Part shown: one piece after another, positions 40,110-61,953 of the stretch
Numbering within the stretch: position 1 is the stretch's first letter
How the letters are laid out: each line of letters starts with the position of its first letter
Assembly (NCBI GenBank): GCA_000004695.1
Contig: CM000150.2
Span: 2,464,001-2,528,000, forward strand
Direction of reading: 5' to 3'
Source of the DNA: Dictyostelium discoideum
Lineage: Eukaryota
Length of the DNA stretch: 64,000 nt
The notes under the pieces: model-generated
The model's database searches: none
Told to the model about the DNA's origin: nothing
Seen by the model: only the letters and a program-made list of their open reading frames with translations
Made by a program: the position numbers and the translations under genes

Positions 40110-41723
40110 TTACTTCTTTAAAGATTGGATGATGAGATGAATCAATTGAATATTCAGTGAAAATGAATCGACAACATTGATTTGTCCACTATCTAAAGAA
40201 TTGATAACGATTGATATTAATAGATTCATATTATTTAATAAAACATTAACCATTGTAATATTTAAATTTTTAAAATAATTGGAAATCTTTAAATGACCAC
40301 ATTGTGATGTAGAATAATTTAAAATGTTTGAAAGTAGGTCAATAACATCACCACTAATACCACTAGTATCACCACTATTACCATATCTAAATAATAAAAA
40401 AGATAAAGTTACATCTAATAAAAGTAAATCACCTCTTTTTGAAATTTCAAATGCCAAATATTTGCAATTAAAAAATTTCTTATTTTTAAAAATTTTAATG
40501 ATTTGATTTTTATCATTATTGTCACAAGTATTATCGCAATTGTTAAATAAATTTGAGTTCAACTTTTTCCCATTATAATATTCCATTAAAATTAAATCTG
40601 AATTATCAACTAAACATCTTTTTGGTTCAATTTCTAAATACTTATTCCCACATATATTATAAACGTTGTTTATTAATTGATTTAATTATAGTATCTGAAT
40701 TAATTTTGCCTATTTTTTAAGAATATTGGTTTGGTAATTTAAAAACACAATTTTAAAAATATAAATTTCTTACCAATTGTGACCATTTATTTAAATAAAT
40801 AACTCCATTCCATATATAAGGATCACCATCATTCTTTTTTTTAACCAAAATATATTTATTCATTAGACCATCCAATTATTTAAAAGTTTTGATAGTTTCT
40901 TTTGCCAAAATTTTACTCTCAATTACTTCCAACTTAATGACTCCTGTTTTTTTCTCGTCAACCTTTTTTTTGAGGTCTTCAGAATAGAAAGAGGCTGATG
41001 ATACCCTTTTTGCTCCAGAACCTGGAAAAACTGTATTAATGGTTTGAATATTTAAATTACCATTAATAATATACTTTGGAATAATATGAAGTTCTTCTTT
41101 TGACAAAGTTATACAAATTGAATGCTGCGCGTGTTGATTATCTAAAGTCCCTGTACCGTAATTATAAAGAGGATGATATAAGGTTCTGGAGATTTTGGAA
41201 CACTGTGAATTACATGAATTCCCCCTTCTTCATTCCAAATAAAAAATCCTTTTGCATGTGCCTTTTTTAACACATGAAACATATGAAAAAAAAAGAATTA
41301 ACAACAAATTATAATAAAAAAAAAATAAAAATAAAAATTTAAAATTAACACATACACTATTATCTCCACGGGTTGATCATTATAGGTCAAACTATTATAT
41401 ATAGTTTTACCAGAGCTATTTGGATAACTCTGTTTGTATGTTGATGCAATTGGGTTTGGCTCATGCGGATTCCTAATATTATAATAAGCTAATTCATTAA
41501 TCACCCTATTTAATTCATTATCAGTATAAATAGCACCTCTACTGTGACTCAATTGTTCTAAAACCCACCATTCAACATTCTTTTCTATTTTAACTCCATC
41601 TTTATCTATAAACACCTGACTTTTTGTATAAACATTTTTTGTTGTTATACATTTTGGAGGAACACAATAAATTTGTGATATTAATAAAAATAAATATAGA
41701 ACTATTATATATTTATTTTTCAT
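40110..41723 (-). pseudogene. DNase II-like paralog, copy A. It keeps the signal-peptide exon (41298..41723) and the second exon (carrying one frameshift), but the third exon is deleted or diverged
   Basis: Exon 1 (MKNKYIIVLYLFLLISQIYCVPPKCITTKNVYTKSQVFIDKDGVKIEKNVEWWVLEQLSHSRGAIYTDN...) is paralogous to 55336..55734. Exon 2 (about 40800-41270) codes AHAKGFFIWNEEGGIHVIHSVPKSPE, then a 1-nt frameshift relative to copy B, then ...HAQHSICITLSKEELHIIPKY.... Downstream of the conserved intron (about 40715-40800) the sequence no longer codes DNase II motifs. The 158-aa ORF 40110..40586 is unrelated and low-complexity. Confidence 0.55.
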
Positions 41724-41744
41724 TTCTTAGATCTAGTATAAAAA

Positions 41745-41960
41745 AAAAAAAAAAAAAAATGAATCTATTTTTGCATTGAAATCTAAATTTGGATTTTTTT
41801 AAAAAAAAACGAACGAATTTTTGTTTCAGAAAAAAAAAAAAAAAAAAATTGATTCTTTTTTTTGTGAAAAAAAAAAAAAAAAAATGAATCTATTTTTGCA
41901 TTGAAATCTAAATTTGGATTTTTTTAAAAAAAAACGAACGAATTTTTTTTTTATTGTTTT
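41745..41960. promoter_or_regulatory. Divergent intergenic region between DNase II-like copy A (minus) and the giant gene (plus). It contains a ~70-bp direct repeat, present twice
   Basis: AAAATGAATCTATTTTTGCATTGAAATCTAAATTTGGATTTTTTTAAAAAAAAACGAACGAATTTTT occurs at about 41757-41826 and again at about 41880-41949. A related AAAAACGAACGAAAAT core recurs upstream of copy B (55880-55900). Any function is unknown. Confidence 0.3.
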
Positions 41961-42017
41961 CGAGCATCTCTACAAATCTTTTTTAATTTTTTTTTACGAA
42001 ACAGTTCTAAAATGTTT

Positions 42018-42049
<32 letters not shown>

Positions 42050-42113
42050 CTCAAAAAAAAATTATTAAATCTCAGAATATGTTTTTTTAAATCATATTTA
42101 AATTAAATAAAAA

Positions 42114-44047
42114 ATGGTAAAATATAAAATAATAATATCATTTTTATTTTTTATTTTATATTGCAATTGTTTCACATTTGGTAGTTACACATTTGATACA
42201 AAAAATTGGTCAACAAATGGTACACTATCATCATGTGTTTTTTATGATTTTGTAAATAACGATTATTATGATTTAAGAGCTATTGTCCACAATGATCATC
42301 AAGGTCCTTACAAAGCAAGTTTTCCTGCCGAACTTCCTGGTGGAATTCAAACACCTTATACAATGTATTTTAATCCTTGTTTTAATGATAATGTGTGTCC
42401 AGGTGGTCTTTCAGTAGGTTGTATGAGTTATGTGCAAAATTCACAAAAAATTCTTAATTCCGTTGGTTCACTTTCAGAGCCACATTCTATAACATTAAAT
42501 TCAGAAGGTATTTCTATTGAATATCAATCAGCTCTTTTACCATCAACAACATGTGCCTCTAATGGTAACCGTAGAACTTTGGTTTTATTTATTACTTGTA
42601 TCCCAACCGAAACATTTAAAATTATTGGTACTTATAACAGAAGAGTATTATGTGAACATACAATTTATATATCTTCAAAATTAGTTTGTAAAGATAGAGG
42701 AATATTATTTAATCAAGGTCTATTTTATGATTTAACACCAATGAAATTGTAAGTTGTTAAATTCTTTTTTATATTTTTTTTTTATTTTAATTTTTTTTTT
42801 TTTTTGTTTTTAATAAAAAAAAAAAAAACCAAACACGAAATTTTTTGTTTTTAATAAAAATTAAAATATCTAACCACTTTTTTTTCAATTTTTTATTTTT
42901 TTCTTCCCACAGATTAGCAAGCACTTCACACCAAATTACCAACAGTGACCAAACACAAGATATTCTCTTTAATTTATTCGGAAATGTAAATAGATGTGGT
43001 ACTTTCGGTACATCAACATTAAGTTATCAATCATGTATTTTAACAGTTGCTAATAAAGTGATCGATTATAAACTAGATTCAAGATATGCAACATCACCAA
43101 AATCAGTTATGGTAGGATCTCTCAGTCAACCAAGAACAATTACATTTACAAATGATGTAATAACCATAATTTATAGTTCAACAACTGGTTTCACAGAATG
43201 CTCATCAAATGGTAACAAATATTCATCAAAGTATATTTTAATTTGTGATCCATTCACAGAATATTATGTAGATAAATTTACATTAGAATCACAATGTATT
43301 TATCAAATTAAGGTTTATACTAAATACGCATGTCCAACATTACGTTTATTCAAACAAACACAATATTATGACCTTTCACCATTGATGTTGTAAGTATTCA
43401 ATTTATTCTTGTATTTCTTCAAAACAGTTATTAATTATTAATAATAAAATAAATAATAGGGATTCAACAAGAAATTATACAACAAGTCATATTACAGACG
43501 GATATGAGTATAATATTGTATTCAATATTGGTAATAAAGCACAAATGTGTAGCGATGCATTTAATGATTATTATTTTGCTTGTCAATATGATCCACGTTA
43601 TAAAAGTTTTAATCCACTTGCAAAGGCAAGTTTAGGTCAAAGAGTAACATTTGATTTAAATCAAGTTAAATTCGAATATACTTCACCAATGTCAGGTTGT
43701 TTAAGAACTTTTATTATTGTTTTAACTTGTGATGAAAACCAACATTATCAATTAGTTTCAACTTTAGAATCTCCTGCATGTGTATATACAGTAACAATTG
43801 AAACTAAATATGTATGTGAATCAACAATTTATTACAATAGATTCGACTATACATATTATGATATTACTCCAATAAAAACGTAAGTTTTAAATTAAATTTG
43901 AAATTAAATTTAAATATAAATAATAATATTAATAATATTAATAATCTTTATTGTCAACAACTAAAATATTAATTTAATTAGAGAAAAAGATAGTCCAAAT
44001 AAAATAGATATTGTTGTTGGTGGATATCCATATAGAGTAAGTAAATT

Positions 44048-44100
<53 letters not shown>

Positions 44101-47100
44101 AACAAATATTTTTCTAATAGCTTTTTTATGGTATCGGTAATACTGTTGATTATTGCGGAGAACAAGTGGGATCAGTCCCTGGTGTAGATTATCAAGCTTG
44201 TCAATATCTCAGTGGTCTTGTTATTCAAGTCGGTAGTTTAAAAAATACATCAATGATTCTTAATAAGGATGGTATAAGTATATATCATACCTCACCATTC
44301 GATTTAACCAAAGTGTGCCAAAATACAAGATATCAAAGAGTAAACATTTTAAATATGGTATGTGATCCAACAGCAACAAATGTTGTGGTCAGCGCTACTG
44401 AGACTGCCAACAATTGGGCATGTGAATATACAATCGAAATTAAAACTAAATATGCATGTTCAATTAATTATGCACCAGTATTACCAGTTGTTGGAAATCC
44501 ATGTTTATACAGTTGTACACCACCAGGTGCTTTAAATCCAAAAGCTATAGTTAGTGTACTTTTAAATTTAGGTGTTTGTTTCTCAGAGATTAATAAATAT
44601 GGTACAGGTGCACAATCATTACTTAATATATTTAAAGATACTTGGGTTTCAAATCACAATGGGTATGATGATTGGATGGGTGGACAACTTTATTCACTAT
44701 TATTAACAGGTAAACCACAGTCAACAATTTCACCATATGTTATTTCAATTACACATGATAATTTATGTACATATGGTGCCGATGGGTTAAGTAAAGCAAA
44801 AAATTCAATCAATGATTTTCTTACTATTACAAATGATCTTCTTGAAATTTCAAATCGTGCAGTTAGTTTAACCGTTACCAAATATACATATTCAGATGGA
44901 GCAATTACATTATCAACACATAAACTTTTATCAACATCAACTGGAGGTCTTGCAATTATTAAATACAAAAATTTGCTATGCTACTATTCAATAGTCCCAA
45001 ATTTACAAACTTTAATTATTGGGAGTTATTTGCTTTCTTGCCCATATTATTCACTACCAACTATTACAGTGCACAGTTTAACACCATCAATAGGGAAAGT
45101 TGGAGATACTATCACAATTAATGGTCAAAATTTAGATACAGATATATATGATGTTTATTTCAACATTATTGATGACAACAGTAAAATTAAAGCAACAATA
45201 ACATCAAGAACCGTAAATTTTGTAAAAGTAATTGTTCCAAATGGTTTTGGTAATGCATTAGTCTACACTCAAAATATACTTAATCCAACTACCTCCGATA
45301 AACTTTCATTTTCATATCCATCACCAACGATTGTCAAAGTAATTAGTCAACCATTTAGTACAGGTATCATCAATAGATTCTTTGTTATTGGTCAAAACCA
45401 TCGTTCTTTAATAACCAATATTGTTATTAATCCATACATCGATAATATTGAAAAAGAAGCAATTTATTGTGAAATTGAAAAGTATTGTCCAAGTTCATCA
45501 AAAATTCCATCGATTTCAGGATCAGCAGTAGGTCATCCATGTATTGATTCAACAGTTTACTCTGAGAATTCCCAGTTTTTCGATTATTCCAAGTATGATG
45601 TTTTTGTTTGTATCAAATCATCATTAGGTGTTGGAAGTGGTATCATTAAATTCCCATCACAAACATTTACATTTGCATACTCTTATAAAGCACCTCTCTT
45701 ATATTTTGTACCACCTGGCATTCGTATTCCAACTGATGGTGGTAGTTTTCAATTGGATGGTAAAAACTTTCCGCCAACACAAGAAATCATTGATCTCGGT
45801 TTAAACACACCTGTAATCATTTGGAATAATGATAATTTTGTTACATTCAAAGGAACAAATCTTGCAAATACCAATATCAATTGGAAGAGTTCGAAATCGA
45901 TTTTATGTGTTGCACCACCTGGTTTCGGTGGACCATTCATCGTTACAGTAACTGTCGGTAAACAAGTGTCAAAGACTATATATCCAAGTGATTTAGATGA
46001 AAATCCAACAAATTATAATTTATATTATTATCCCCCAGCAGTTGTTGACATATCAGAAGTTTCAACTGATGGTGGTGAAGTTATAATAAAAGGTACAAAT
46101 TTTATTCCAGCCTCGCTTAAAGATCAAATTAATAATCAACCAATAATCGGTTCACCTCATTCAGTAGAGTTTAATAATGTTTTATCTTCATCATGGACAT
46201 GGATTGATTCAACACATGTAAAAGCCATCGTACAAAAAGGTATTGGTACAATCTCTACAATTGTAAATGTTGGTGGTCAAAGATCTGATTTAAATCCAAT
46301 TCCTGTAAATTTTTACAAAAGACCTGAACTAGATAATAAAAAATATGAAAACTTTGCAAATAGTGATATTTTAATAACTGGTTCTAATTTTATACCAGTT
46401 GGTGTTTCAGCAGGTTCATCAAGTTCTGTCAAAATCGGAGGTATTCCCTGTAACTCTGTAACATGGGTAGATTCAAAATCTGTTATTTGTAATGTGCCAA
46501 TTGGAACTGGTGATAATTTAAATATCCAAGTAACAGTTGGAGGTCAACAAACCGAATTAAATGATTATTTCTCATATTTAGGGCAATGCGATTTCCTCTG
46601 TAGCGATTTATCAAATTTAGTAAGTTTTTAAACATTTTAATTACAGAAAAAAAAAAAAAAACTAAAAAATACTAATTTATTATCATTTTTATCTCAAAGG
46701 AATTAGCAAAAGTTATTGGGGAAAATAAAAAAGATTTAAAGAGTACTCTTTTATTAACAGGTGTATGTTTAGAACAAATTGAGCAATATAATTTCACAGA
46801 TATTAATGATGAAATTGAATCAAGTTGGATTGAAAACTCAATTATTGATGATTGGACAAGTGGTAAATTCTATAACTATTTCAAATCATCAGAATCATAC
46901 TCAACAGTTAAAACACTTGCAAAATATATTACACCAAAGAATCCATGTATTTATGAAAATAAAAGAGTAAAGAATTCATTAGATTACCTTTTTGAAATCA
47001 ATTCAGATATTTTCCATTTAATTGAACTTTCAATTTCATCAAAAATCAGTTATCCAGATTCACCATATGAAACTTATTTCTATGAATCATCAAGCAACCC

Positions 47101-50100
47101 AGAGTATGGTCTTTCAATTATTACATTTGATTCAGCAATTTGTAGCTTTACAGAATCAACTATTCAAGACTATCAAAGTGGAAAAGTATTACAATCATGT
47201 TCAATCATTCCAATTATAAATCAAGTAATTAATCCAACAACAACACTTCAAGCACCATATCAATATTCACTTACAATAATTGGTAGATTATTTGATAGTT
47301 CAACTAGAATATTCTTATCAGGTTATGAATGTCCAATCATTGGTAATATCGCTACTAATCAAAATGATTATATTCAAACTCTTAGTTGTTCAGTACCACC
47401 AGAAATCGAATCATACTCGGCCTCTCAAATTACTTTTTACAATGATTATAGTGAAAATAATATATATAATTTCTTGTTTTATTTTAAAAAATCATTCTTT
47501 TTTAAATATCCAATTTCAACAGTAACTCAAATTCAATACCCATCAAGTGGTCCAATTCAAATGAATTCTGAAATTAAAGTAATTGGTTTTAATTTCTTCC
47601 CATATGGTATTACAAATCCAAGCATTCAAGTTTTTATTGATGATCTTGAATTAACTGATACTATATTTGGATTAACAAGCATAAATGGAGTTGATTCATT
47701 TTCATTTATTGCTTCTGGTTTAGGTTCTTTAAAGTAAGTGAAAAAAAAAAAATTAAAAAAAAAAATTTATAAATATTTATTAATATTTAAAAATATTTTT
47801 TTACAGTTTCATTCGATTATTTTATAGTAATAGTTTACCGATGTTTATAAACGATGATATTAATTTAGAATTCTCATTTGAAAGACCAATTATTAATAGT
47901 ATATTACCAACAAATGGAGATTACAATACAAAAGTTACAATTAATGGTAATAATTTTAGAAAAGGTCAATCAGTAAAAATTGGAGACATATTAGTAAATG
48001 ATATTGAATTCATTTCAAACCAAGAGATTATTGCTTCAGCACCATTTGGATTTATTAGTGGACTTGTAGTTGTTTATTCAGATGATCAATTCAGTTTAGA
48101 AGAAATATCATTTAGTTATACTTCACCAATTATAGACCAAGTTATTCTTTCAAATTATGAATCAAAATTAAACACAACAGGTACAAATTATTTCACAGTA
48201 ATAGGTAGAGGTTTAGGTACATACATTGCAGAACAAGTCGATATTATTATCAATCAAGAGTTTTATGCAAGTTGCGAATTCGATTTCTGTGAAAGTTTAG
48301 AAATTATTGAAGATATAGATATAAAAGATCAAGGAATTTGTCAATATTTAAAATATAATAAATATCAATATATCAATGAAAACTTTGATATATTAAATTG
48401 TATTTTAACCGATTCGATTGGTAAAGATAAATCAATCAGTATCAAAATTTCAGAATTCCAAAACCAAACTTTCACCTACTCTTATTATGAACCATGGATT
48501 GAAAAATTAACACAAAACTCTTCATCAGCAAACACTGATGGTGGTGAAGTTATCGTTATAAATGGTTACAACTTTTTACCATTCGAAAATTTAAGTCCAT
48601 ACTATGAAAACAATGAAACTATTGCACAATGGTTAAATCAATCAGAAATATTAATTGGTGAAAGCTATCTTTGTCAATCAATTAATTGGACCAATTCCTA
48701 TGAATTAAATTGTACAATCCCACCAGGAATTGGTGTTAATCATACAATCATTGTAAAAGTAGGCCTTCAATCATCAAATCATACTGATTATTTGTATTCT
48801 TACGATTCACCAAACCTTGATACAATCAATAACTCCACTGGAAATGAAACACATTACTATTCTTCAACAGATGGTAACAATGAAATTATAATAACAGGTT
48901 ATAACTTTATTCCAAAAGAGTTATCAGATCATTACAACCAGAATGAAAATAAAACCATAAATTCAATACTATTAGGTAAACAATATTGTAATGAAACTAT
49001 TTGGATTAATTCAACAACAGTCAAATGTAAACCAATAGCAGGTATCGGGTCAAATTACAAAATTATCATTAAAGTTGGTAATCAAGATTCAAACGAAACC
49101 GTTTACTTCTCATATGAGAAGCCAATTTTAGATTTAAAGAATTACACAGGTTCAACAAATGGTAATACTGAAATTACAATAACAGGTATCAACTTTATTC
49201 CAAAAGAATTAGCAGATAATAATAATTTCAATCAATCAGAGAACTATATAATGATTGGTGATAATAAATGTAACGAAACTATTTGGATCAACTCAACAAC
49301 AGTTAAATGTAAACCAATATCAGGTACTGGTATCAATCATAGAGTTATAATAACAGTTGGTAATCAAAACTCAAATGAAACGGTCTACTTTTCATATGAT
49401 AAACCAATTTTAGATATTAAAAACTATAGTAGTCCAACTGATGGCAATACTGAAATCACAATAACAGGTGAAAACTTTATTCCAAAAGAATTAGCAGAAA
49501 ATAATAATTTCAATCAATCAGAGAACTATATAATGATTGGTAATAATGAATGTAATGAAACTATTTGGATCAATTCAACAACAGTTAAATGTAAACCGTT
49601 AGCAGGTATCGGGTCAAATTACAAAATTTTCATTAAAGTTGGTAATCAAGATTCAAATGAAACCGTTTACTTCTCATATGAGATGCCAATTTTAGATTTA
49701 AAGAATTACACAGGTTCAACAAATGGTAATACTGAAATTACAATAACAGGTATCAACTTTATTCCAAAAGAATTAGCAGATAATAATAATTTCAATCAAT
49801 CAGAGAACTATATAATGATTGGTGATAATAAATGTAATGAAACTACTTGGATCAATTCAACAACAGTTAAATGTAAACCAATATCAGGTACTGGTATCAA
49901 TCATAAAGTTATCATAACAGTTGGTAATCAAAACTCAAATGAAACGGTCTACTTTTCATATGATAAACCAATTTTAGATATTAAAAACTATAGTAGTCCA
50001 ACTGATGGAAATACTGAAATCACAATTACAGGTGAAAACTTTATTGAAAATTATAATCAAGAAAAACATAATGAAAATGATAATTTCGTTAGAATTGGTG

Positions 50101-52856
50101 AAAATAAATGTAATGAAACAAAGTGGATAAATTCGACAACAATTAAATGTAAAATAATTCAAGGTATTGGTTTAGATTATAAAATAGTTGTAACAGTTGC
50201 CAATCAACAATCAAATGAAAATGTTTTCTTTTCATATGAAAAACCAATGATTGACAGTAAAACACTATTAGCATCAACCAGTGGCAGTGAAACTATTAAA
50301 ATTACAGGTACTAATTTCATTCCATCAACTTTAGTAGAACATTACAACAAAGAAGAAAATAAAGATAACTCAATAAATTCAGTTACTATCAATAACGAGT
50401 TTTGTAATGATATTACATGGATTAGCTCAACAGAACTAACATGTAAACCATTAGCAGGAGTTGGAACCAATCATACTATATTCATTTTGGTTGGAACTCA
50501 AAAATCAAATGAAGAAAACTCATTCTCATATAAACCTCCGAATATTGAAGAGTTTAAATACTACACAGCACCAACACATTCCAATAAAATTATTACTATA
50601 ACTGGTGAAAACTTTATTCCAATCGAATTATTATCAAAAGACAACAGCAATAGTTCAGTACTTATTGATAATATAAAATGTGAAGAAATCAAATGGATTG
50701 ATTCAACAAAAGTTTCATGTCAAGTTCCAGTAGGTCAAGGTAAAGATTTATCGATTAAAGTTAAAATTGAAAATCAAGAAACTGAAGAAAATCAACAATT
50801 TTCATATGATAAACCATTTATTCAATCAATCAATCCAAATAAAGGAAGATGTAATCAAGAAGTATTAATTACAATTCAAGGTGATAGTTTTGGAAAGAGT
50901 GATCAACTAATTAAAATTGGTAATAACGAATGTCAAGATATTCAATTCTATCCAAATCATACATTTACATGTAAAGTTCCAATCGTGGAGAATTCAATTG
51001 AATCCATTGTTTTATTAAATGTTGGCAATCAAGATTCAAACGATAACATTACATATAAATACTATGGACCACCAGAAATTAAAAGTATTGGTTTACCATC
51101 ATATCTTTCATTCAAAGGTGATGATTTAATTACAATCATTGGTAATAACTTTATAGAATATGATGATGGATCTGATGAAATTGTTAAATTTAATAATGAA
51201 CCAACAACTATCATTGAAAACACAGAAACATACATTAAAATTAAAACTCTTAGTGGTGATGAATTTAATGTACCAATTGCTGTAGAATTAAATGGTCAAA
51301 TAAGTAATACAGATACTTCATTCGTTTACTCAAATCCAATAATTGAAAGTGTAACACCATCATCAAGTAGCTCAAAATCAAATACTAATATCATCATTAA
51401 AGGACATAATCTTGGGTATTTAACAAACACTCCCAAAATTACAATTGGAAGTAGTAATTGTTTAAATATCAAAACTATATCTCCAAATGAAATTCATTGC
51501 ATCGTTATGAAATCAAGCGCAGGCACTAAACAATTAACATTAACCTATGAAAGTTATCAACCAACCTATTCACAATTCACTCACAAAAACGATGATGACA
51601 GTGATAGCCACGATGATGATGATGATGACCATAAAAACAATAATGGACCAAAAAACACCATATTAAGTATTCTTGGAGGTATAATTGGAGCAGCAGCATC
51701 AGCAGCCGTAAGTGGATTTATAACAAGCATTTTCGGTGGTGCGACATCAGTAGCCACAGCAGCAGCAACAGCAACAGCAGCAGGTACTGCGGTAGCAGCA
51801 GCAACTACAGCGTCAACAGCAACAGCTATTGCCGGTGCAATTACCGAAGGTGTTGCAGTGGCCTTTACAGGGGTATCAGTAATAGCAGCAACAGCAGGTG
51901 GTGTTGTTATTACTTCAATTGTAACAGCAACAGCCATCCTTATTTCAGGTGGAAGTACACAATCACCAACTCCAACCATAGCTCCAACTATTTCACCAAC
52001 TCCAACGCCAACCGATAACTATTGGGTAAGATGTATGGTCGATTATTCAAGATTAACTTTACAAGTCGATAATCTTTACGGTCAAGATATAGTATGTATT
52101 GATGGTAATGGAATTTCATCAATTTTCAACGAATCATTCTCTTGTAAACCTGATCTTATTAACGATGGTATGATATGTGCTCAACAACATCAAGATGGAA
52201 CAAATTCAACAACCACATTTGGTAATTCAACATTAATTTGTCATATTGACTCAACAAAATCATGTGAAATTTCACCACCATTCATCATACCATCCGATCC
52301 AATTGAAGATGATGAATATTCAAATATTCTAGAATGTCAATATAATCTCATTGAAAATTCATTATCAACACACTCTAATAATAGTCCACTAAGATGTTAT
52401 AATAATGAAACTGAAAATTACTTCATTATGAATACTACACTTTCATGCTCAAAAGATGAATCATTAAGTCAAGATAAAGATACGATTTCTTGTTTAGCAG
52501 ATACAGATGACACTCAAATCTTTTTCTATAAGAACTCAATTACATGCATTACAGATTATCCATACTATAGATGTACAATGAAATCTCAACCATCACAAGA
52601 TGATAACATAATTCCAAAACCAACATTACCACCAATTCCATCAATTGATGATGATTCCACATGTATTTATGATTCAGCCAATTCATATTCAATAGATCTC
52701 CAACTAACGACTGGAACTAATGCTAAATGTCCAAAAAATGAAAAAGAACTTCGTTATGATCTTTCAACTTCTCTAACATGCACTGATTATATCACACTTA
52801 AAAACTCCACTTATTCAATTTCATATTCAAATTACATTTGCATTAAAACAAAATAA
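42114..52856 (+). CDS. Giant secreted or membrane protein (~3,390 aa): signal peptide, ~5 MRH/CI-MPR-like Cys repeats, >=15 IPT/TIG repeats, a Gly/Ala/Thr/Val-rich hydrophobic segment, and a C-terminal Cys-rich domain. Model: join(42114..42748,42913..43389,43460..43879,43982..44036,44121..46619,46700..47733,47807..52856)
   Basis: All six donors are GTAAGT. The acceptors are CCCACAG, AATAG, ATTAG, CTAATAG, TCAAAG and TTTACAG, and the phases check out (635+477+420+55+2499+1034+5050 = 10170 nt). The N-terminus MVKYKIIISFLFFILYCNCF is a signal peptide. Exons 1-3 and 5 each code ~150-aa modules ending C-x-Y-x-[IV]-x-[IV]-x-TKY[AV]C followed by YYD[LI][ST]P. That is the same motif order as cation-independent mannose-6-phosphate receptor (CI-MPR) repeats, C.Y.F.W.T..AC then [YF]DLSPL. 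Exons 5-7 code repeated TDGG...I.G.NFIP...C....W.....VKC....G.G......V.VG.Q.S modules (IPT/TIG-like). A segment ILSILGGIIGAAASAAVSGFITSIFGGATSVATAAATATAAGTAVAAATTASTATAIAGAI...VVITSIVTATAILISGG sits at 51660-51960. This is followed by a Thr/Pro linker and a ~290-aa Cys-rich C-terminus. Confidence 0.75.
48990..50040 (+). repeat. Near-identical tandem repeats inside exon 7 (two alternating ~270-bp TIG modules, A-B-A'-B')
   Basis: ...ITGYNFIPKELSDHYNQNENKTINSILLGKQYCNETIWINSTTVKCKPIAGIGSNYKIIIKVGNQDSNETVYFSYEKPILDLKNYTGSTNGNTEITITGINFIPKELADNNNFNQSENYIMIGDNKCNETIWINSTTVKCKPISGTGINHRVIITVGNQNSNETVYFSYDKPILDIKNYSSPTDGNTEITITGENFIPKELAENNNF... repeats almost verbatim, at above 95% nucleotide identity. 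Confidence 0.8.
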
Positions 52857-53194
52857 AAACAATTAAAAAATTTTAAAAAACAAAATGATATAATAATTTA
52901 ATGAAATAATTTAATTACTATTTTTACTATTTTTTTTATTTTCAAAAAACTGTAATTAAATTATTTCATTAAATCATTATGTCACACCACCCAAAATTCA
53001 ATTCTGAAAACTTTTTTTATTTAATTACCCTTAAGAAAAAATTAAATGTGAAAATAAATGTTATATTTATTTTAGTTTTGTTTTTTTTTTTAAATTATCA
53101 TTAATAATAATGATGCACCATTTGGTATTATCTAATTTTGAAAACTAAAAAAAAAAAAATTTATTTTTGGAATTAGTTAAATTTAAAAAAAAAT

Positions 53195-55300
53195 TTAAAT
53201 TAAAATATAATTAATACTTACACCTTTGGTATATTCACCCAAAACTTTTGTAAATTCCTTAATGGAATTGATGTTTTGTAGATCACCATGTCTATTTTCA
53301 GTTAAGAGAATACAATAGATAAGATGATCTTGGCAATCTGGATGATATTTAATGATTTTTGAGTCTGTATCACTTGGAAAAGCTTTACATATTTTTTTAT
53401 TAATTTCATTATAATCCTTATGACCTTTTTCGCTATCACTTTGATCGCCTTCGATTTTATTTGGGAATTTAAATGGTACTAAATCATTGATTTCAACTTC
53501 TTTCAATTGAATGATGTTTTTATTTTTAATAAATTTCAATTTTTCATAAAGTTCTTTTACTAAATCAATATTTTTTAAATCGATATATATCTTATCTGGG
53601 AAAGGTGTGAGTATTGATGTTGGTTCGATAATGGTATTTTGTGTTAGAGCAGTTACCTTTTTATTATCTCTTGATGAGGTAAGTGTAAATGTTGATTCAA
53701 CATAGATATCTTTAAACAATTGGTAAGATTTGGATTTTTCAAAGCTACAAGTGACATCATCATTATCACATAAAATAATTTCCCCATTGATTGATGGAAA
53801 CACATTGAAATCGAATAACTCTGATTTGTATATATTTTGATCCTTAAGTTGGGTTAATAGTGGAATATAAACATTGTCATAACCATAGTTATATTCATTT
53901 GAAAATAATTTATCTTCATCTTTTTCATTATTGTAAACGATATTAAATGGATTCAAATGATAGTATTTTTCATCATCTCCATAACCTTTTACCTTGGTTT
54001 CAAAGTTTAGCTTTCTGTTACCTAAAACATTAGATCATTTGGATATTTTTCTATTAATTCGTTTAAATTCAACTTTTGACCTGCAATGCTATTTAATCTT
54101 AAAGAAGCTTTTCTAAGATATTGACCATCCTCTGGGTGTCTAATTATACCAACTCTTCTGTAAAAGTATTCAGAAAGATATTTCATTTCGTCACTGCAAA
54201 AAGAACCACCTCCACGTGCCTCTTGCCTTCCATGCCAATTTAAATCACCAAAGCAAATAGTCCCACCACCGCCACCGCTATATGCTTTATCCATATAATT
54301 GATTTGATAAGACATTTTTGAATGGTCACTTCCTGAATCAGAGCTAATAACTGTTGACCAAGGTGTTTCGAATCTGTAAGAAAGATATATTGATACAACT
54401 GCTGGAGACATTTCATTTTTTCCTTTTTCCATCTTTGTTTGAGTATGGACCATTGTTTTAAAATTATTACCATTTTTAAAACTATAGATGTAATGCCAAA
54501 GTATAAAAAATTTAATTTTTTCCTTGTGAGTATTTTCAATTTTATCACTATACTCTTTATAAAGGTGTGTATTTGTTGTTTGAATGAAGTAATCCCCTTT
54601 ATTTTTACTCTCATAAATTTTATTATAGTGAACATTTGTTTCATGAGCTGTATCTGATGATGTAATATTTTTGTTTAGAATTAAATCTGCCTATTTTAAG
54701 AATGTAAGTTTGATGATTTATTAACACAAATTTATAATTAAAATTACTTACCAATTGTGACCATTTATTTAAATAAATAATTCCATCCCATATATCAGGA
54801 TCAACTTTATTCTTTTTTTTAACAAAAATATTATCACTCATTAGATCATCCAATTCTTTAAAAGTTTTGGGAATTTTTGTTTCTAAAATTGAACTATCAA
54901 TTTTTTCCAACTTAATGACTCCTGAGCTTATCTTTTCAACCTCTGTTTGAAGATTTTCGGAATAAGAATCGGCTGATGATACCTTTTTAACCTTTTTACC
55001 ATTTCCTGTTGAAACTGTATTAATGGTTTGAATATTTAAATTACTATAAATAATATACTTTGGAATAATATAAAGTTCTTCTTTTGACAAAGTTATACAA
55101 ATTGAATGTTGAGCATGTTGATGATTTAAAGTATTTTTATCGAAATTAAAAAGAGGTTCATATCCTGTTTCTGGAGATCTTGGAACACTGTGAATTACAT
55201 GAATTCCCCCATTTTCATTCCAAATGAAAAATCCTTTTGCATGTGCCTTTTTTAAATAAATAAATTAAAAAAAAAAAATATGTTAACAAATAATGATAAC

Positions 55301-55337
<37 letters not shown>

Positions 55338-55734
55338 AATAATAAACACAAACACTATCTTCACCACTACTGAGCTGATCATTATAAGTCAAACTATTAT
55401 ATATAATTTTGTTGTCAGATTTATTTGGTAAACTCTGTTTGTATGTAGATGTAATAGGGTTTGGTTCTTTTGGATCTCTAATATTATAATTTGCAATTTC
55501 ATTTATCTCTGAACTTCCTCCTTTTAATGTGTTATCAGTATAAATAGCACCTTGACTGTGACTTAATTGTTCTAAAAACCACCATTCGACATTCTTTTCT
55601 ATTTTAACTCCATCCTCAAATACTTGACTATCCTTGTAAATATTTTTTGTTGTTATACATTTTGGAGGATCGTTACAATAAATAGGTGATATTAATACAA
55701 ATAAATATAAAAAAATAATATATTTATTTCTCAT
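53195..55734 (-). CDS. DNase II-like (acid deoxyribonuclease) paralog, copy B. Exons approx complement(join(54022..54690,54751..55246,~55350..55734)). The C-terminal extension ORF 53195..53956 is out of frame because of a 4-nt deletion relative to copy C
   Basis: The N-terminus MRNKYIIFLYLFVLISPIYC is a signal peptide. Exon 2 codes KKAHAKGFFIWNENGGIHVIHSVPRSPETGYEPLFNF (first DNase II HxK motif). Exon 3 codes ...SDSGSDHSKMSYQINYMDKAYSGGGGGTICFGDLNWHGRQEARGGGSFCSDE (second HxK and the RGGG..C motif) and then ends KYPNDLMF* at 54022. The paralog-conserved continuation (KLNFETKVKGYGDDEKYYHLNPFNIVYNNEKDEDKLFSNEYNYGYDNVY...SINYILI*) is in another frame; ccaaatgatctaatgttttagg here corresponds to ccacagcgtctaaaagaaattttagg in copy C. 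Intron donors are GTAAGT. Confidence 0.6.
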
Positions 55735-56164
55735 TTTCTTAAGTCTAATGTTATAATGTTTGTTTCAATTTTTTAAAATTGGGTGTGTTTTTGCGAAAAA
55801 AAAAAAAAAAAAAAAAAAAATGGCTTTGTCGTCAACAAAAAAGAAAAAAAACTAAAATTGGATCATTTAAAATAAAATAAAAAAACGAACGAAAATATTT
55901 TTTTTTAATCGTTTTTAGATGGTTTTACCACTCCTTTGATTATTGAAAATCTTTTTTAAATATTTTTAGATTTTTTTTTTTTTATTTTTTTCGACCCATT
56001 ATTTTATAAAAAAAAAAATAATAAAAATTACCCCCACAAACCGCTTTTTTTTTTTTTTTTCACAAAGCCTGGTTTTTAATTTTTTTAACACTTTTTGGCT
56101 TTGCATCTTTATCGCTTAAAATACGGTTTGGAAAATACAACATTTTTTTTTTAATCAACCATAC

Positions 56165-56196
<32 letters not shown>

Positions 56197-56212
56197 TCGT
56201 ATTGAAATTAAA

Positions 56213-57808
56213 AAAAAATGGTAAAATTTTAAATAGTTATATCATTTTTATTATTTATTTTATATTTTAATTGTTTCACATTTGGTAGTTACACATTTGA
56301 TACAAAAAATTGGTCAACAAATGGTACACTATCATCATGTGTTTTTTATGATTTTGTAAATAACGATTATTATGATTTAAGAGCTATTGTCTATCCTGAT
56401 CATCGAGGTTCCCACAGAGCAAGTTTCACAGCTGAGCTTTCTGGTGGAATTCAAACACCATATACAATATATTTTAATCCTTGTTTTAATGATCATATGT
56501 GTCCAGGTGGTCTTTCAGTAGGTTGTATGCAAAAATAGAGGAGTATTATTTAATCAAGGTCTATTTTATGATTTAACACCAATGAAATTGTAAGTTATTA
56601 AATTCTTTTTCATATTTATTTTTTTATATTTTTTTTTTTTAAAATAATTATCAAAAAATAAAAAAAAAAAAGAACCAAACACAAAATTTCAAAATAAAAA
56701 AATCTAATCTTTTTTCACTTTTTTTTATTTTTTTTTAATTTTTTTATTTTTATTTTTTTTTCCCACAGATTAACAAGCACTTCACACCAAATCACCAATG
56801 ATGACCATACAAAAGATATTCTCTTTAATTTATTCGGAAATGTAAATAGATGTGGTACTTTCGGTACATCAACATTAAGTTATCAATCATGTATTTTAAC
56901 AGTTGCTAATAAAGCGATCAATTATAAACTAGATTCAAGATATGCAACATCACCAAAATCAGTTATGGTAGGATCTCTCAGTCAACCAAGAACAATTACA
57001 TTTACAAATGATGTAATAACCATAATTTATAGTTCAACAACTGGTTTCACAGAATGCTCATCAAATGGTAACAAATATTCATCAAAGTATATTTTAATTT
57101 GTGATCCATTCACAGAATATTATGTAGATAAATTTACATTAGAATCACAATGTATTTATCAAATCAAAGTTTATACTAAATACGCATGTCCAACATTACG
57201 TTTATTCAAACAAACACAATATTATGATCTTTCGCCATTGATGTTGTAAGTATTCAATTTAATTAAAAAACTTTTTTGGTGTTTTATTCTTTTGCGCTTA
57301 TTAATTATTAATAATAAAATAAATAATAGGGATTCAGCAAGAAATTATACAACAAGTCACTTTACAGACGGATCTGAGTTTTTTATTGTATTCAATATTG
57401 GTAATAAAGCACAAATGTGTAGCGATGCATTAAATGATTATTATTTTTCTTGTCAATACGAACCACGTCAAAAATTTTTTTATCCACTTGCAAAGGCAAG
57501 TTTAGGTCATAGAGTAACATTTGATTTAAATCAAGTTAAATTTGAATATACTTCACCATCAACAACAACTTGCTCATCAAATTCCTATAAAAGAGATCTT
57601 ATTGTTATTTTAAATTGTGATGAAAACCAACATTATCAATTAGTTTCAACTTTAGAATCTCCAACATGTGTATATACAATAACAATTAAAACTAAATATG
57701 TATGTGAATCAACAATTTATTACAATAGAATTAACTATACCTATTATGATATTACTCCAATAAAAACGTAAGTTTTAAATTAAATTTAATTATAAATTAT
57801 AAATTATA

Positions 57809-57874
<66 letters not shown>

Positions 57875-60800
57875 TATAACTTTATTAACAACCAAAACTA
57901 TTAATTTTAATTAGAACAAAAGATAGTCCAAAAACTGTAGATATTGTTGTTGGTGGATATCCATATAAAGTAAGGGATAATTTTTAAATTTTTAAATTTT
58001 TTTTTTTTTTTTTTTTTTTTTTTGACAAACACCAAACGTGTGTGAAACTAAAATTTAAATATTTTATATATATTTAAAAATGGTTACTAACTTTACTTTA
58101 TTAATTTTTTCCAACAGCTTTATTACGGTATAGGTAATACTGTTAATTATTGCTCAAATCAAGTGGAGTCAGTTCCAGGTGTTGATTATCAAGCTTGCCA
58201 ATATCTCAGCGGTCTTGTTATTCAAGTCGGTAGTTTAAAAAATACATCAATGTATATAAGTAATAATGGTATAAGTATATATCATACCACACCATTTGAT
58301 TTAACCAGAGTATGCCAAAATACAAGATATCAAAGAGTGATACAACAGCAATTAACGTTGTGGTCAGCGCTACGGAGACTGCCAATTATTGGGCATGTGA
58401 ATATACAATCGAAATTAAAACCAAATATGCATGTCCAATTAATTATGCACCAGTATTACCAGTTGTTGGAAATCCATGTTTATACACTTGCACACCACCA
58501 GGTGCTTTAAATCCAAAAGCTATAGTTTGTGTACTTTTAAATTTAGGCTTGTTTCTCAGAGATTAATAAATATGGTACAGGTGCACAATCATTACTTGTT
58601 ATATTCAACAATACTTGGGTTTTAAACCACAACGGATATGATGATTGGATGGGTGGACAACTTTATTCACTATTACTAACAGGTAAACCACAAACATCGA
58701 TTTCACCATATGTTAGTTCAATTACACATGATAATTTATGTACATATGGTACCAATGGGTTAAGTAAAGCAAAAAATTCAATCAATGATTTTCTTACTAT
58801 CACAAATGATCTTCTTGAAATTTCAAATCGTGCAGCCAGTTCAACCGTTACCAAATATACATATTCAGATGGAGAAATTACATTATCAACACATAAACTT
58901 TTGTCAACATCAACTGGAGGTCTTGCAATTATTAAATACAAAAATTTGCTATGCTACTATTCAATAGTTTCAAATTTACAAACTTTAGTTATTTCGAATT
59001 ATTTGCTTTCATGTCCATATTATTCACCAACTATTACAGTGTTCAGTTTAACACCATCAACAGGGCAAATTGGAGATATTATCACAATTAATGGTCAAAA
59101 TTTAGATACAAATAGATATGATGTTTATTTCAACATTATTGATGACAACAGTAAAATTAAAGCAACAATAACATCAAAGTAATTAGTCAACCATTTAGTA
59201 CAGATATCATCAATAGATTCTTTGTTATTGGTCAAAACCATCGTTCTTTAATAACCAATATCACCATTTATCCATATATCGATAATATTGAAAAAGAAAC
59301 AATATATTGTGAAATTGAAAAGTATTGTCCAAGTTCATCAAAAATTCCATCGATTCCAGAATCAGCAGTAGGTCATCCATGTATTGATTCAACAGTTTAC
59401 TCTGAGAATTCTCAGTTTATAAGGTACAAATTTTATTCCAGCCTCGCTTGCAGATCAAATTAATAATCAATCATTAATTGGTTCACCAAATTCAGTCACG
59501 TTTAATAATGTTTTATCTTCATCATGGAAATGGATTAACTCAACACATGTAAAAGCCATCGTACAAAAAGGTATTGGAGCAATCCTTACAATTGTAAATG
59601 TTGGAAGCCAAAGTACTGAAACGAGTCCATATCCCGTAATTTTTTATAAACAACCTGAATTAGATAATAAAAAATATGAAAACTTTGCAAATAGTAATAT
59701 TTTAATAACTGGTTCTAATTTTGTACCAGTTAGTGTTTCAGCAGGTTCATCAAGTTCTGTCAAAATCGGAGGTATTCCCTGTAACTCTGTAACATGGGTA
59801 GATTCAAAATCTGTTATTTGTAATGTACTAATTGGAACTGGTGATAATTTAAATATCCAAGTAACAGTTGGAGGTCAACAAACCGAATTAAATAATTATT
59901 TCTCATATTTAGGGCAATGCGATTTCCTCTGTAGCGATTTATCAAATTTAGTAAGTTTTTAAACATTTTAATTACAGAGGAAAAAAAAAACTAAAAAATA
60001 CTAATTTTTTACATTATAATCTCAAAGGAATTAGAAAAAGTTATTAGAGAAAATAAAAAAGATTTAAAGCAATAGTTCAGTACTTATTGATAATATAAAA
60101 TGTGAAGAAATCAAATGGATTGATTCAACAAAAGTTTCATGTCAAGTTCCAGTAGGTCAAGGCAAAGATTTATCGATTAAAGTTAAAATTGAAAATCAAG
60201 AAACTGAAGAAAATCAACAATTTTCATATGATAAACCATTTATTCAATCAATCAATCCAATTAAAGGAAGATGTAATCAAGAAGTATTAATTACAATTCA
60301 AGGTGATAGTTTTGGAAAGAGTGATCAACTAATTAAAATTGGTAATAACGAATGTCAAGATATTCAATTCTATCCAAATCATACATTTACATGTAAAGTT
60401 CCAATCGTGGAGAATTCAATTGAATCCATTGTTTTATTAAATATTGGCAATCAAGATTCAAACGATAACATTACATATAAATACTATGGACCACCAGAAA
60501 TTAAAAGTATTGGTTTACCTTCACATCTTTCATTTAAAGGTGATGATTTAATTACAATCATTGGTAATAACTTTATAGAATATGAAGATGGATCTGATGA
60601 AATTGTTGTTAAATTTAATAATGAACCAACAACTATCATTGAAAACACAGAAACATACATTAAAATTAAAATTCTTAGTGGTGATGAATTTAATGTAACA
60701 GCAACAGCCATCCTTATTTCAGGTGGAAGTACACAATCACCAACTCCAACCATAGCTCCAACTATTTCACCAACTCCAACGCCAACCGATAACTATTGGG

Positions 60801-61629
60801 TAAGATGTATGGTCGATTATTCAAGATTAACTTTACAAGTCGATAATCTTTACGGTCAAGATATAGTATGTATTGATGGTAATGGAATTTCATCAATTTT
60901 CAACGAATCATTCTCTTGTAAACCTGATCTTATTAACGATGGTATGATATGTGCTCAACAACATCAAGATGGAACAAATTCAACAACCACATTTGGTAAT
61001 TCAACATTAATTTGTCATATTGACTCAACAAAATCATGTGAAATTTCACCACCATTCATTATACCATCCGATCCAATTGAAGAGATGAATATTCAAATAT
61101 TTTAGAATGTCAATATAATCTCAATGAAAATTCATTATCAACACACTCTAATAATAGTCCACTAAGATGTTATAATAATGAAACTGAAAATTACTTCATT
61201 ATGAATACTACACTTTCATGCTCAAAAGATGAATCATTAAGTCAAGATAAAGATACGATTTCTTGTTTAGCAGATACAGATGATACTCAAATCTTTTTCT
61301 ATAAGAACTCAATTACATGCATTACAGATTATCCATACTATAGATGTACAATGAAATCTCAACCATCACCAGATGATAACATAATTCCAAAACCAACATT
61401 ACCACCAATTCCATCAATTGATGATGATTCCACATGTATTTATGATTCAGCCAATCCATATTCAATAGATCTCCAACTAACGACTGGAACTAATGCTAAA
61501 TGTCCAAAAAATGAAAAAGAACTTCGTTATGATCTTTCAACTTCTCTAACATGCACTGATTATATCACACTTAAAAACTCCACTTATTCAATTTCATATT
61601 CAAATTACATTTGCATTAAAACAAAATAA
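56213..61629 (+). pseudogene. Decayed tandem duplicate of the giant MRH/TIG gene (5.4 kb versus 10.7 kb)
   Basis: It is co-linear with 42114-52856 at roughly 90-97% identity, but it carries the following lesions: (1) the start is disrupted (ATGGTAAAATTTTAA); (2) ~290 bp of exon 1 is deleted at 56530 (..ggttgtatg|caaaaatagagg..); (3) frameshifts and deletions occur in the exon-5 homolog at about 58335, 58550, 59175 and 59425; (4) a ~3.9-kb deletion joins the exon-6 start to the late TIG repeats at 60075; (5) a ~660-bp deletion at 60700 removes the Gly/Ala-rich segment; (6) a 1-nt deletion lies at 61090. The exon 2-4 homologs (56763-57968) and the C-terminal Cys-rich region (60700-61629) are still largely open. 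There is an (ATA)n microsatellite at 57812-57870. Confidence 0.75.
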
Positions 61630-61953
61630 AAACAATTAAAAAATTTTAAAAAACAAAATGATATAATAATTTAATGAAATAATTTAATTACTATTTTTAC
61701 TATTTTTTTTTATTTTCGAAAAACTGTAATTAAATTATTTCATTAAATCATTATGTCATACCACCCAAAATTCAATTCTGAAAACTTTTTTTTTATTTAA
61801 TTACCCTTAAGAAAAAATTAAATGTGAAAATAAATGTTATATTTATTTTAGTATTGTTTTATTAATTTAAATTATTAATGCACCGTTTATCTAATTTTGA
61901 AAACTAAAAAAAAAAAAATTTATTTTTGGAATTAGTTAAATTTAAAAAAAAAT

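Follow-up and report, generated by a model that had tools for sequence, protein, structure and literature searches.

Introduction

Known cell-surface proteins of Dictyostelium that are related in kind to the product of the gene considered here include TgrB1 and TgrC1, which are polymorphic allorecognition glycoproteins with IPT/TIG repeats (PMC4404348, PMC12745789). The present analysis concerns a 98-residue hydrophobic segment, nearly devoid of charge, within a giant MRH/TIG protein that is encoded in a 64,000 nucleotide (nt) stretch of the Dictyostelium discoideum genome (assembly GCA_000004695.1, contig CM000150.2, positions 2,464,001 to 2,528,000 of the forward strand), referred to throughout as the window. 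Tgr proteins are much smaller than this giant, cross the membrane once in the type I orientation, and have neither an MRH domain nor a C-terminal Cys-rich domain. The two systems have in common the organism and the IPT/TIG repeats, and the locus described here shows tandem copies, pseudogenes and strain differences; the comparison is made at the level of the TIG fold only.

Two further kinds of system bear on the segment itself. Transmembrane glycine zippers, in which helices are said to pack through small-xxx-small faces, were reportedly described by Kim and colleagues in 2005. The segment resembles the glycine-zipper families (Gly-zipper_Omp PF13488, Gly-zipper_YMGG PF13441 and Rick_17kDa_Anti PF05433) in that its first part, which we call span 1, has Gly, Ser or Thr at every fourth residue, and in the richness of the whole in Gly, Ala and Ser. 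It differs from them in having a single GxxxG and no match among Pfam families, since an hmmscan of the 98 residues at E<=10 returned 0 families and hence no Gly-zipper profile. Helical-hairpin anchors with a marginal return helix are also known, as are internal signal sequences in viral polyproteins. The likeness to these lies in two hydrophobic stretches separated by a short loop and set between what would be two translocated domains, and in the weakness of the second stretch in a paralogous group (family B, described below), which is too slight to insert alone; the differences are that the loop in the window's own group (family A) is without positive charge and that the flanking domains are very large.

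We propose, with about an even chance of being right, that the segment is a membrane anchor with an even number of spans, which would place both of the large flanking domains on the extracytoplasmic side. The evidence so far is most simply read as a membrane anchor of odd make-up that calls for no new mechanism. The segment itself is real and conserved, and we regard it as an uncommon version of an anchor type already known.

Results and Discussion

Composition and hydropathy of the segment

The segment comprises residues 1274-1371 of the last-exon open reading frame (ORF), at 51660..51953 of the window (block ILSILGGIIGAAASAAVSGFITSIFGGATSVATAAATATAAGTAVAAATTASTATAIAGAITEGVAVAFTGVSVIAATAGGVVITSIVTATAILISGG), and has the composition A29 T16 G14 I13 V10 S9 L3 F3 E1. 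The peptide singled out in the original prediction, which was made from the DNA letters alone, is reproduced exactly in the translation of this ORF; with the ILS that precedes it, it makes up the block, inside the interval 51640..51990 that had been given. Eight residue types (G, A, T, V, I, S, L and F) account for 97 of the 98 residues, the sole charge being Glu1336, just as had been claimed, whereas the same types make up 50% of the remainder of the ORF protein, where their longest run is 10. Within the segment the longest such run is 63, against a maximum of 23 across 2000 whole-protein shuffles, and Ala occurs 29 times here as against 22 times in the other 1573 residues of the ORF. The segment is compositionally extreme, far beyond chance.

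No other region of the 1671-residue ORF is strongly hydrophobic, and Kyte-Doolittle 19-residue means of at least 1.6 are found solely at 1272-1299 and 1329-1373. Span 1 has a 19-residue mean of 1.7-1.8 and a Hessa-scale sum of about +2, and the middle a mean of 0.8-1.3 and sums of +3.7 to +7, while the last stretch has the top hydropathy of the protein, with a mean of up to 2.0 and a sum down to +0.96 (all of the Hessa biological-scale sums use the central values only and are an approximation). The trapezoid profile on the Goldman-Engelman-Steitz (GES) scale is at least 1.0 at all centres from 1278 to 1371, which leaves space for up to four helices; the GES/TopPred-like cutoffs used were 1.0 for certain and 0.6 for putative spans. 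Two hydrophobic stretches of bilayer-spanning length are present according to the Kyte-Doolittle peaks and the GES profile, and the multi-span membrane option of the original prediction agrees well with these two peaks and with a block that lies wholly above the cutoff.

In the 27 residues of span 1, Gly, Ser or Thr and bulky residues alternate with a period of 4.0 (P=0.0005), forming a small-residue face of six positions, one at every fourth residue (G1279, G1283, S1287, S1291, T1295 and G1299). No helical periodicity was found in the middle and last thirds of the segment. The glycine zippers that had been suggested are thus represented by this face of span 1 and not by the strict motif, which finds no support: (G,A,S)xxxGxxx(G,S,T) motifs are not enriched in the segment (6 against a shuffle mean of 4.7, P=0.31), the one GxxxG compares with a shuffle mean of 1.8, and the Gly-zipper families of Pfam are not matched. 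When PDB sequences were searched with the segment and with the Cys-rich domain, no match was significant, the weak ones being to pectate lyase (E=0.014) and SlyB (E=3.1), and Foldseek against the PDB returned the TIG fold alone.

All 98 codons are kept without an indel in the ortholog from D. cf. discoideum (L001:2985-8018), and indels are present in the adjoining acidic and Pro/Thr stretches. The two genes differ within the segment by 13 synonymous and 10 non-synonymous changes, which corresponds to a dN/dS ratio (omega) of 0.30 as against 0.24 for the whole exon; the middle of the segment is likewise free of indels, and its 9 synonymous as against 3 non-synonymous changes give an omega of 0.13. 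Judged by these counts, the segment is under constraint. Comparison with other dictyostelids had been suggested at the outset, and orthologs and paralogs alike keep the segment.

The giant protein and its C-terminal domain

The gene that contains the segment (Table 1) encodes, in order, a signal peptide, four MRH-like domains, TIG arrays, the anchor module and a Cys-rich C-terminal domain. The MRH-like domains lie upstream, with a Pfam match to PF13015 (PRKCSH_1/MRH, E=1.7e-5); further TIG repeats (PF01833) are encoded by ORFs upstream of the last exon, and the last-exon ORF itself has 12 TIG stretches according to Pfam. In a tblastn comparison the protein P0003 (3198 aa, D. cf. discoideum) tiles 42114..52853 with collinear exons and no stops inside them, and the inter-exon gaps of the gene (n=5 introns/gaps) are 84-91% AT and have GTAAGT donor sites, within a window of Dictyostelium-like composition (~25% GC). 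Because the signal peptide, the MRH and TIG exons, the collinear tiling by P0003 and the AT-rich gaps with GTAAGT donors all agree, the product is a protein of ~3,400 residues that enters the secretory pathway. The last TIG repeat is followed by an acidic stretch NDDDSDSHDDDDDDHK, the 98-residue block, a Ser/Thr/Pro linker and a Cys domain of 280 residues, and the segment was therefore correctly placed between the TIG array and the Cys-rich domain, with 12 TIG repeats before it and 16 Cys residues after it. The length of the acidic stretch differs among copies, by a 1-codon indel relative to the ortholog and with other lengths again in P0003 and P0001. A (GAT)n run (51612-51628, in a stretch at 51588-51635) encodes its poly-Asp juxtamembrane part, and is of unequal length in all of the copies compared.

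The 16 Cys residues of the C-terminal domain fall into three modules of 6, 6 and 4. The counts are even in both groups of relatives (family A, 16; family B, 14), with 13 columns invariant across the families; columns 163 and 243 are specific to family A, with no Cys in family B, and one further column lies at 380 in A and at 360 in B. Metal-site patterns of the CxxC or His type are absent from the domain. AlphaFold2 (AF2) predicts it to be all-beta, with strands at a predicted local distance difference test (pLDDT) score of 55-80 in modules 1-2. It matches no Pfam family above threshold (SPRY lies below it) and no PDB fold, and is an undescribed domain found only in Dictyostelium. There are three N-x-S/T sequon columns common to families A and B, and a Ser/Thr/Pro-rich linker precedes the domain in both. 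These features of the sequence point to an oxidising, glycosylating compartment, and we infer disulfide bonding and glycosylation of the domain. There is a weak similarity (E=1e-4) between modules 2 and 3.

Table 1. Features of the giant gene, its hydrophobic segment and the downstream copy, in window coordinates
Feature	Position	Strand	Basis or remark
Giant-protein gene, multi-exon, ~3,400 codons	42114..52856	+	ORFs, tblastn, Pfam
Signal peptide MVKYKIIISFLFFILYCNCFTFG	42114..42182	+	Start of upstream ORFs
Last-exon ORF, 1671 codons	47841..52856	+	12 TIG repeats, acidic stretch, segment, Pro/Thr linker, Cys-rich domain
Acidic/polar juxtamembrane stretch NDDDSDSHDDDDDDHKNNNGPKNT	51588..51659	+	N-terminal (predicted extracytoplasmic) side of span 1
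Span 1, residues 1274-1300, ILSILGGIIGAAASAAVSGFITSIFGG	51660..51740	+	Probable transmembrane helix, N-terminus outside
Ala/Thr-rich uncharged middle, residues 1301-1336, ends at single Glu	51741..51848	+	Hydropathy, Tandem Repeats Finder (TRF), alignment
Last hydrophobic stretch, residues 1337-1371, GVAVAFTGVSVIAATAGGVVITSIVTATAILISGG	51849..51953	+	Putative return span; ends S-G-G
Ser/Thr/Pro linker STQSPTPTIAPTISPTPTPT, length variable	51954..52013	+	2-codon indel relative to ortholog
Cys-rich C-terminal domain, stop codon included	52014..52856	+	Cys modules, AF2
Antisense ORF, 132 codons	51581..51979	-	By-product of sense composition, no gene
Degraded duplicate downstream	~56200..61670		Aligned region 55012-61673 against 41028-52900
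Segment remnant TATAILISGG	60694..60727	+	Directly after deletion junction in downstream copy

A proposed membrane anchor with an even number of spans

Family B consists of a D. discoideum paralog (P0008, 2456 aa) and P0012 of D. dimigraforme, and is 25-27% identical. It has the same signal peptide, MRH domains, TIG array, hydrophobic module (~97 residues), Ser/Thr/Pro linker and Cys-rich domain, and its module aligns across the window segment with small gaps only (~5 columns). The first helix, IVIFMVIGLAALVAAALLASTALPL, is an unmistakable transmembrane (TM) helix with a Hessa-scale sum of -3.95, and aligns with span 1. It is followed by an Ala/Ser/Thr-rich stretch and then by the highly conserved ALEKSLQFGFAAVTRRVVTQVAKDGIKR, which holds 6 of the 7 Lys/Arg residues of a loop of ~55 residues that has 2 acidic residues and a net charge of +5; the Ala/Thr middle of the window segment aligns with this Lys/Arg-rich loop. 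The module ends with the patch VSTIALAMVVTKSSMGG, for which the GES value is 1.16 in P0012 and 0.98 in P0008, and the last stretch of the window segment aligns with the conserved family B patch RVSTIALAMVVTKSSMGG. The two families differ in that the first helix of family B is much more hydrophobic and that the second half of its module carries nine or ten charges (EK, RR, KD, KR and K), whereas the family A segment in the window has one Glu and neither Lys nor Arg.

Because the gene begins with a signal peptide, the TIG array should be lumenal or extracellular and span 1 should enter the membrane with its N-terminus outside. The orientation N-out, C-in fits with the strongly acidic flank that precedes span 1 and with the relative P0001, in which span 1 is followed by a basic tail. 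Positively charged loops face the cytoplasm (the positive-inside rule), and the loop of family B, being rich in Lys/Arg (7, against 2 acidic residues), would accordingly be cytoplasmic. Since the traits of the C-terminal domain have to be accommodated together with the signal peptide, the acidic flank and the family B loop, an even number of spans is the most economical solution. The topology had been called ambiguous in the original prediction, and it can now be narrowed towards both flanks being extracytoplasmic and the spans even in number; membrane insertion itself, the number of spans and the side of the loop are what we infer here.

The minimal model is a hairpin. Span 1 (~1274-1300) would enter with its N-terminus outside, the uncharged Ala/Thr-rich part of ~35 residues would lie at the cytoplasmic face or form an interfacial loop, and the last stretch (~1337-1371) would return the chain, with its N-terminus inside and its C-terminus outside. 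Such an arrangement would leave the MRH/TIG ectodomain as well as the disulfide-rich C-terminal domain on the extracytoplasmic side, and span 1 would use its Gly/Ser/Thr face for close packing with the return span or with other copies. In a four-span variant the Ala/Thr middle would dip into the membrane as a weak extra pair of helices. If this is correct, a surface protein of ~3,400 residues has an unusual tether, namely a nearly charge-free hairpin or four-span anchor with two ectodomains on the same side, and the pair of families would be well suited for testing the weight of the positive-inside rule and the insertion of weakly hydrophobic return helices.

Several observations weigh against an even-span anchor. 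The loop of family A is without Lys or Arg, so that the positive-inside argument is borrowed from family B, and in P0008 the second patch has no more than ~11 apolar residues and a Hessa-scale sum of +7, which makes it borderline as a TM helix. The scales conflict on the middle third of the segment, which is not TM according to the Kyte-Doolittle and Hessa scales and is TM according to GES, and AlphaFold2 runs on two constructs gave no confident structure for the segment (pLDDT 22-39). With respect to the C-terminal domain, even Cys counts are suggestive of disulfides and are no proof of them; the number of common sequon columns (3) is reached by 0 of ~280 circular shifts, in a test that is inflated by the homology of the aligned sequences, and under a stricter test, which requires the sequon in every member of both families, there is 1 site and the result is not significant (P=0.12).

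The relationship between the families also allows a more radical scenario, which is unlikely as a whole though worth setting out. An ordinary hairpin, with a TM helix, a charged cytoplasmic loop and a second TM helix, may still be seen in family B, and family A may have turned it into 98 nearly charge-free and wholly embedded residues whose topology is set without a positive-inside signal, or else the last span may have come to be cleaved as an internal signal, which would set the Cys-rich domain free. An embedded segment could form a four-helix or re-entrant bundle, which might self-associate through the small-residue face. Either outcome, if true, would be a natural experiment in topogenesis and a new type of anchor between giant ectodomains.

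Other readings of the segment

A type I anchor, either single-pass or with three spans, would leave the Pro/Thr linker and the Cys-rich domain in the cytoplasm. We consider this unlikely, with a chance that is nonetheless appreciable, given that in family B only the first stretch is clearly TM (a Hessa-scale sum of -3.95, as against +5 to +7 for the second patch) and that the truncated P0001, which has nothing beyond span 1 except a basic tail, has an ordinary type I layout. An all-beta domain of 280 residues with 16 or 14 Cys and no CxxC/His pattern would be atypical for the cytosol, however, and the 13 invariant Cys columns, the sequon columns common to both families and the position of the most hydrophobic part of the family A protein in the last stretch are all at odds with it. 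The spans could instead be even in number and the last stretch an internal signal, cleaved by signal peptidase after ILISGG and before the following Ser. The Cys-rich domain would then become a protein in its own right, either lumenal or secreted, and the TIG giant would remain in the membrane. By the classic n/h/c rule for signal peptides, family B offers a basic n-region (KDGIKR), an 11-residue h-region (VSTIALAMVVT) and a polar c-region of small residues (KSSMGG), and family A ends with S-G-G, with small residues at -3 and -1. Such cleavage is nevertheless quite unlikely, as family A has no basic n-region, its hydrophobic stretch of ~33 residues is long for a cleavable signal, and one ortholog has Asp at -2 (ILISDG), which is tolerated yet untypical. 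A third option is that the protein is fully secreted and that the segment is an extracellular low-complexity linker, hydrophobic, beta-aggregating (amyloid-like) or self-associating, which arose from triplet-repeat DNA. The DNA of the middle is indeed an imperfect GCA/ACA triplet-like repeat (51752..51828, with TRF arrays of period 3, 6, 18 and 21), copies differ there by slippage and microhomology deletions, and beta-branched residues abound in the last third (VVITSIVTATAILI), for which AF2 gives strands at very low confidence. We nonetheless regard this as very unlikely: the homologous stretch of family B is an unmistakable TM helix, the near-equal length of the module at 26% identity and the lack of indels relative to the ortholog are unlike free-running low-complexity sequence, and 0 Pro and 14% Gly are not elastomer-like. 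Moreover, a hydrophobic stretch of at least 25 residues that leaves the translocon after a signal peptide normally integrates as a stop-transfer sequence. Of the remaining ideas in the original prediction, a glycosylphosphatidylinositol (GPI) signal was rejected on the grounds that 300 residues follow the segment and that the C-terminus (...NYICIKTK) is not hydrophobic, and an elastomer on the grounds of 0 Pro and 14 Gly in 98 residues, elastomeric domains being high in combined Pro and Gly; the amyloid option is neither supported nor excluded.

It is extremely improbable that the segment is not translated as read, whether because it is an intron or because the antisense ORF is a real gene. 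A GTAAGT hexamer is present inside the segment at 51708..51713, but the segment is 53% AT as against 84-91% in the introns of the same gene, and the intron that had been named as a possible refutation is not borne out by base composition. The GC content is 0.57 at first, 0.69 at second and 0.14 at third codon positions (GC3), the last being as in the remainder of the gene (0.16), and the raised GC of the segment is confined to positions 1 and 2. The segment is coding, not intronic. The 132 antisense codons are open, and their synonymous and non-synonymous counts are the same as those of the sense frame (14/13), with equal omega. However, the third codon positions of the antisense frame coincide with those of the sense frame, and it reads Ala as Ala, Thr as Val, Val as Thr, Gly as Pro, Ile as Ile or Met and Asp as Ser; a stop in it requires a Tyr, His or Gln codon in the sense frame, and since the sense protein has none of these here, the antisense ORF is open by necessity. 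Because both frames share their wobble positions, dN/dS and low GC3 cannot separate sense from antisense, and the equal omega is uninformative. The sense frame is established instead by its unbroken continuity, from the 12 TIG domains upstream through the segment and into the conserved Cys-rich domain, in four gene copies (that of the window and three others). The antisense ORF had been dismissed as spurious from the outset; it exists, and the shared wobble frame explains it.

Relatives and other copies

Relatives were sought with an exhaustive HMMER scan of 1.84 billion representative proteins, with the segment plus the Cys-rich domain as query, which returned 11 proteins at E<=0.001 (among them P0003 at E=2.6e-242, P0008 at E=1.8e-10 and P0012 at E=8.5e-4). 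Matches below 1e-4 are all from Dictyostelium, and the lone match from elsewhere (P0011, Sporothrix-type, E=4.7e-4) is compositional and covers just the low-complexity start of the query. A word-indexed search with the Cys-rich query gave no match, though relatives are in the collection and were recovered by the exhaustive scan. As far as sequence relationships go, the MRH/TIG/Cys-rich giants are a lineage-restricted and uncharacterised family of group-4 Dictyostelium, with families A and B as its two branches. P0008 of family B is split in strain AX4 into DDB_G0290815 (MRH domain-containing) and DDB_G0290813 (IPT/TIG domain-containing), and wild-strain annotations have a single family B protein of ~2456 aa in place of the two AX4 genes for the MRH part and the TIG part; this suggests either mis-annotation or a presence/absence polymorphism between strains. 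DDB_G0290815 is listed among failed knockout attempts (PMC7190356), and a literature search found no study of the family A or B genes beyond that listing.

Within family A, which is the type present in the window, P0003 and P0013 (3198 and 3199 aa, both D. cf. discoideum) have a segment of equal length, with changes that are conservative except for one Gly-to-Arg, the single Arg. P0004 lacks 16 residues of the Ala/Thr middle; in the window a 12-nt direct repeat, CAACAGCAACAG, is present at 51766 and 51814, and its spacing of 48 nt fits a slippage deletion of this size. The truncated P0001 keeps span 1 and then has the basic tail MKFLNKTR. This middle copy of D. cf. discoideum (L001:8497-11154) forms a conventional type I membrane protein. 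At the DNA level its homology ends at window position 51741; the next ~190 nt, which encode the basic tail, are unrelated, and homology picks up again in the 3' flank. The idea that a TM helix with a basic tail is the ancestral type I state was rejected, as the DNA shows a rearranged copy. Three independent breakpoints, those of P0001, P0004 and the downstream copy in the window, fall within the triplet-repeat-like DNA of the segment.

The downstream copy in the window lacks the sequence that corresponds to 51273..51919 of the main gene, with a 4-bp TGTA microhomology at the junction and an in-frame loss of 651 bp. The original prediction had the deleted part as exactly the segment, which is too narrow in one respect and too broad in another, in that the last TIG domain and the acidic stretch are lost along with 88 residues from the start of the 98-residue segment, of which the final 10 are retained. 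Identity between this copy and the main gene is 98-99% in the 3' part (50646-51272 and 51920-52900) and 81-95% in the 5' part; 46742-50645, where most of the TIG array lies, is missing from the copy as well. The pattern points to recent gene conversion or to a staggered duplication, with deletions afterwards. Of the AX4 models (proteins P0018, P0020, P0002 and P0006, counting those of family B), DDB_G0289225 and DDB_G0289223 resemble pieces of a decayed family A copy, which again suggests mis-annotation or a presence/absence polymorphism. The MRH/TIG/Cys-rich family sits in tandem, fast-decaying arrays that are reminiscent of recognition loci.

Neighbouring genes

DNase II-like genes (deoxyribonuclease II, PF03265) are present at 40876-41723, 53195-55734 and 61954-63862, all on the minus strand. 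One such gene lies head-to-head upstream of each giant MRH/TIG copy, so that the repeat unit consists of a DNase II-like gene and a giant gene, and the same arrangement is found in D. cf. discoideum (L001). The middle DNase II-like copy (53195-55734), which is broken up into separate ORFs, may be a pseudogene.

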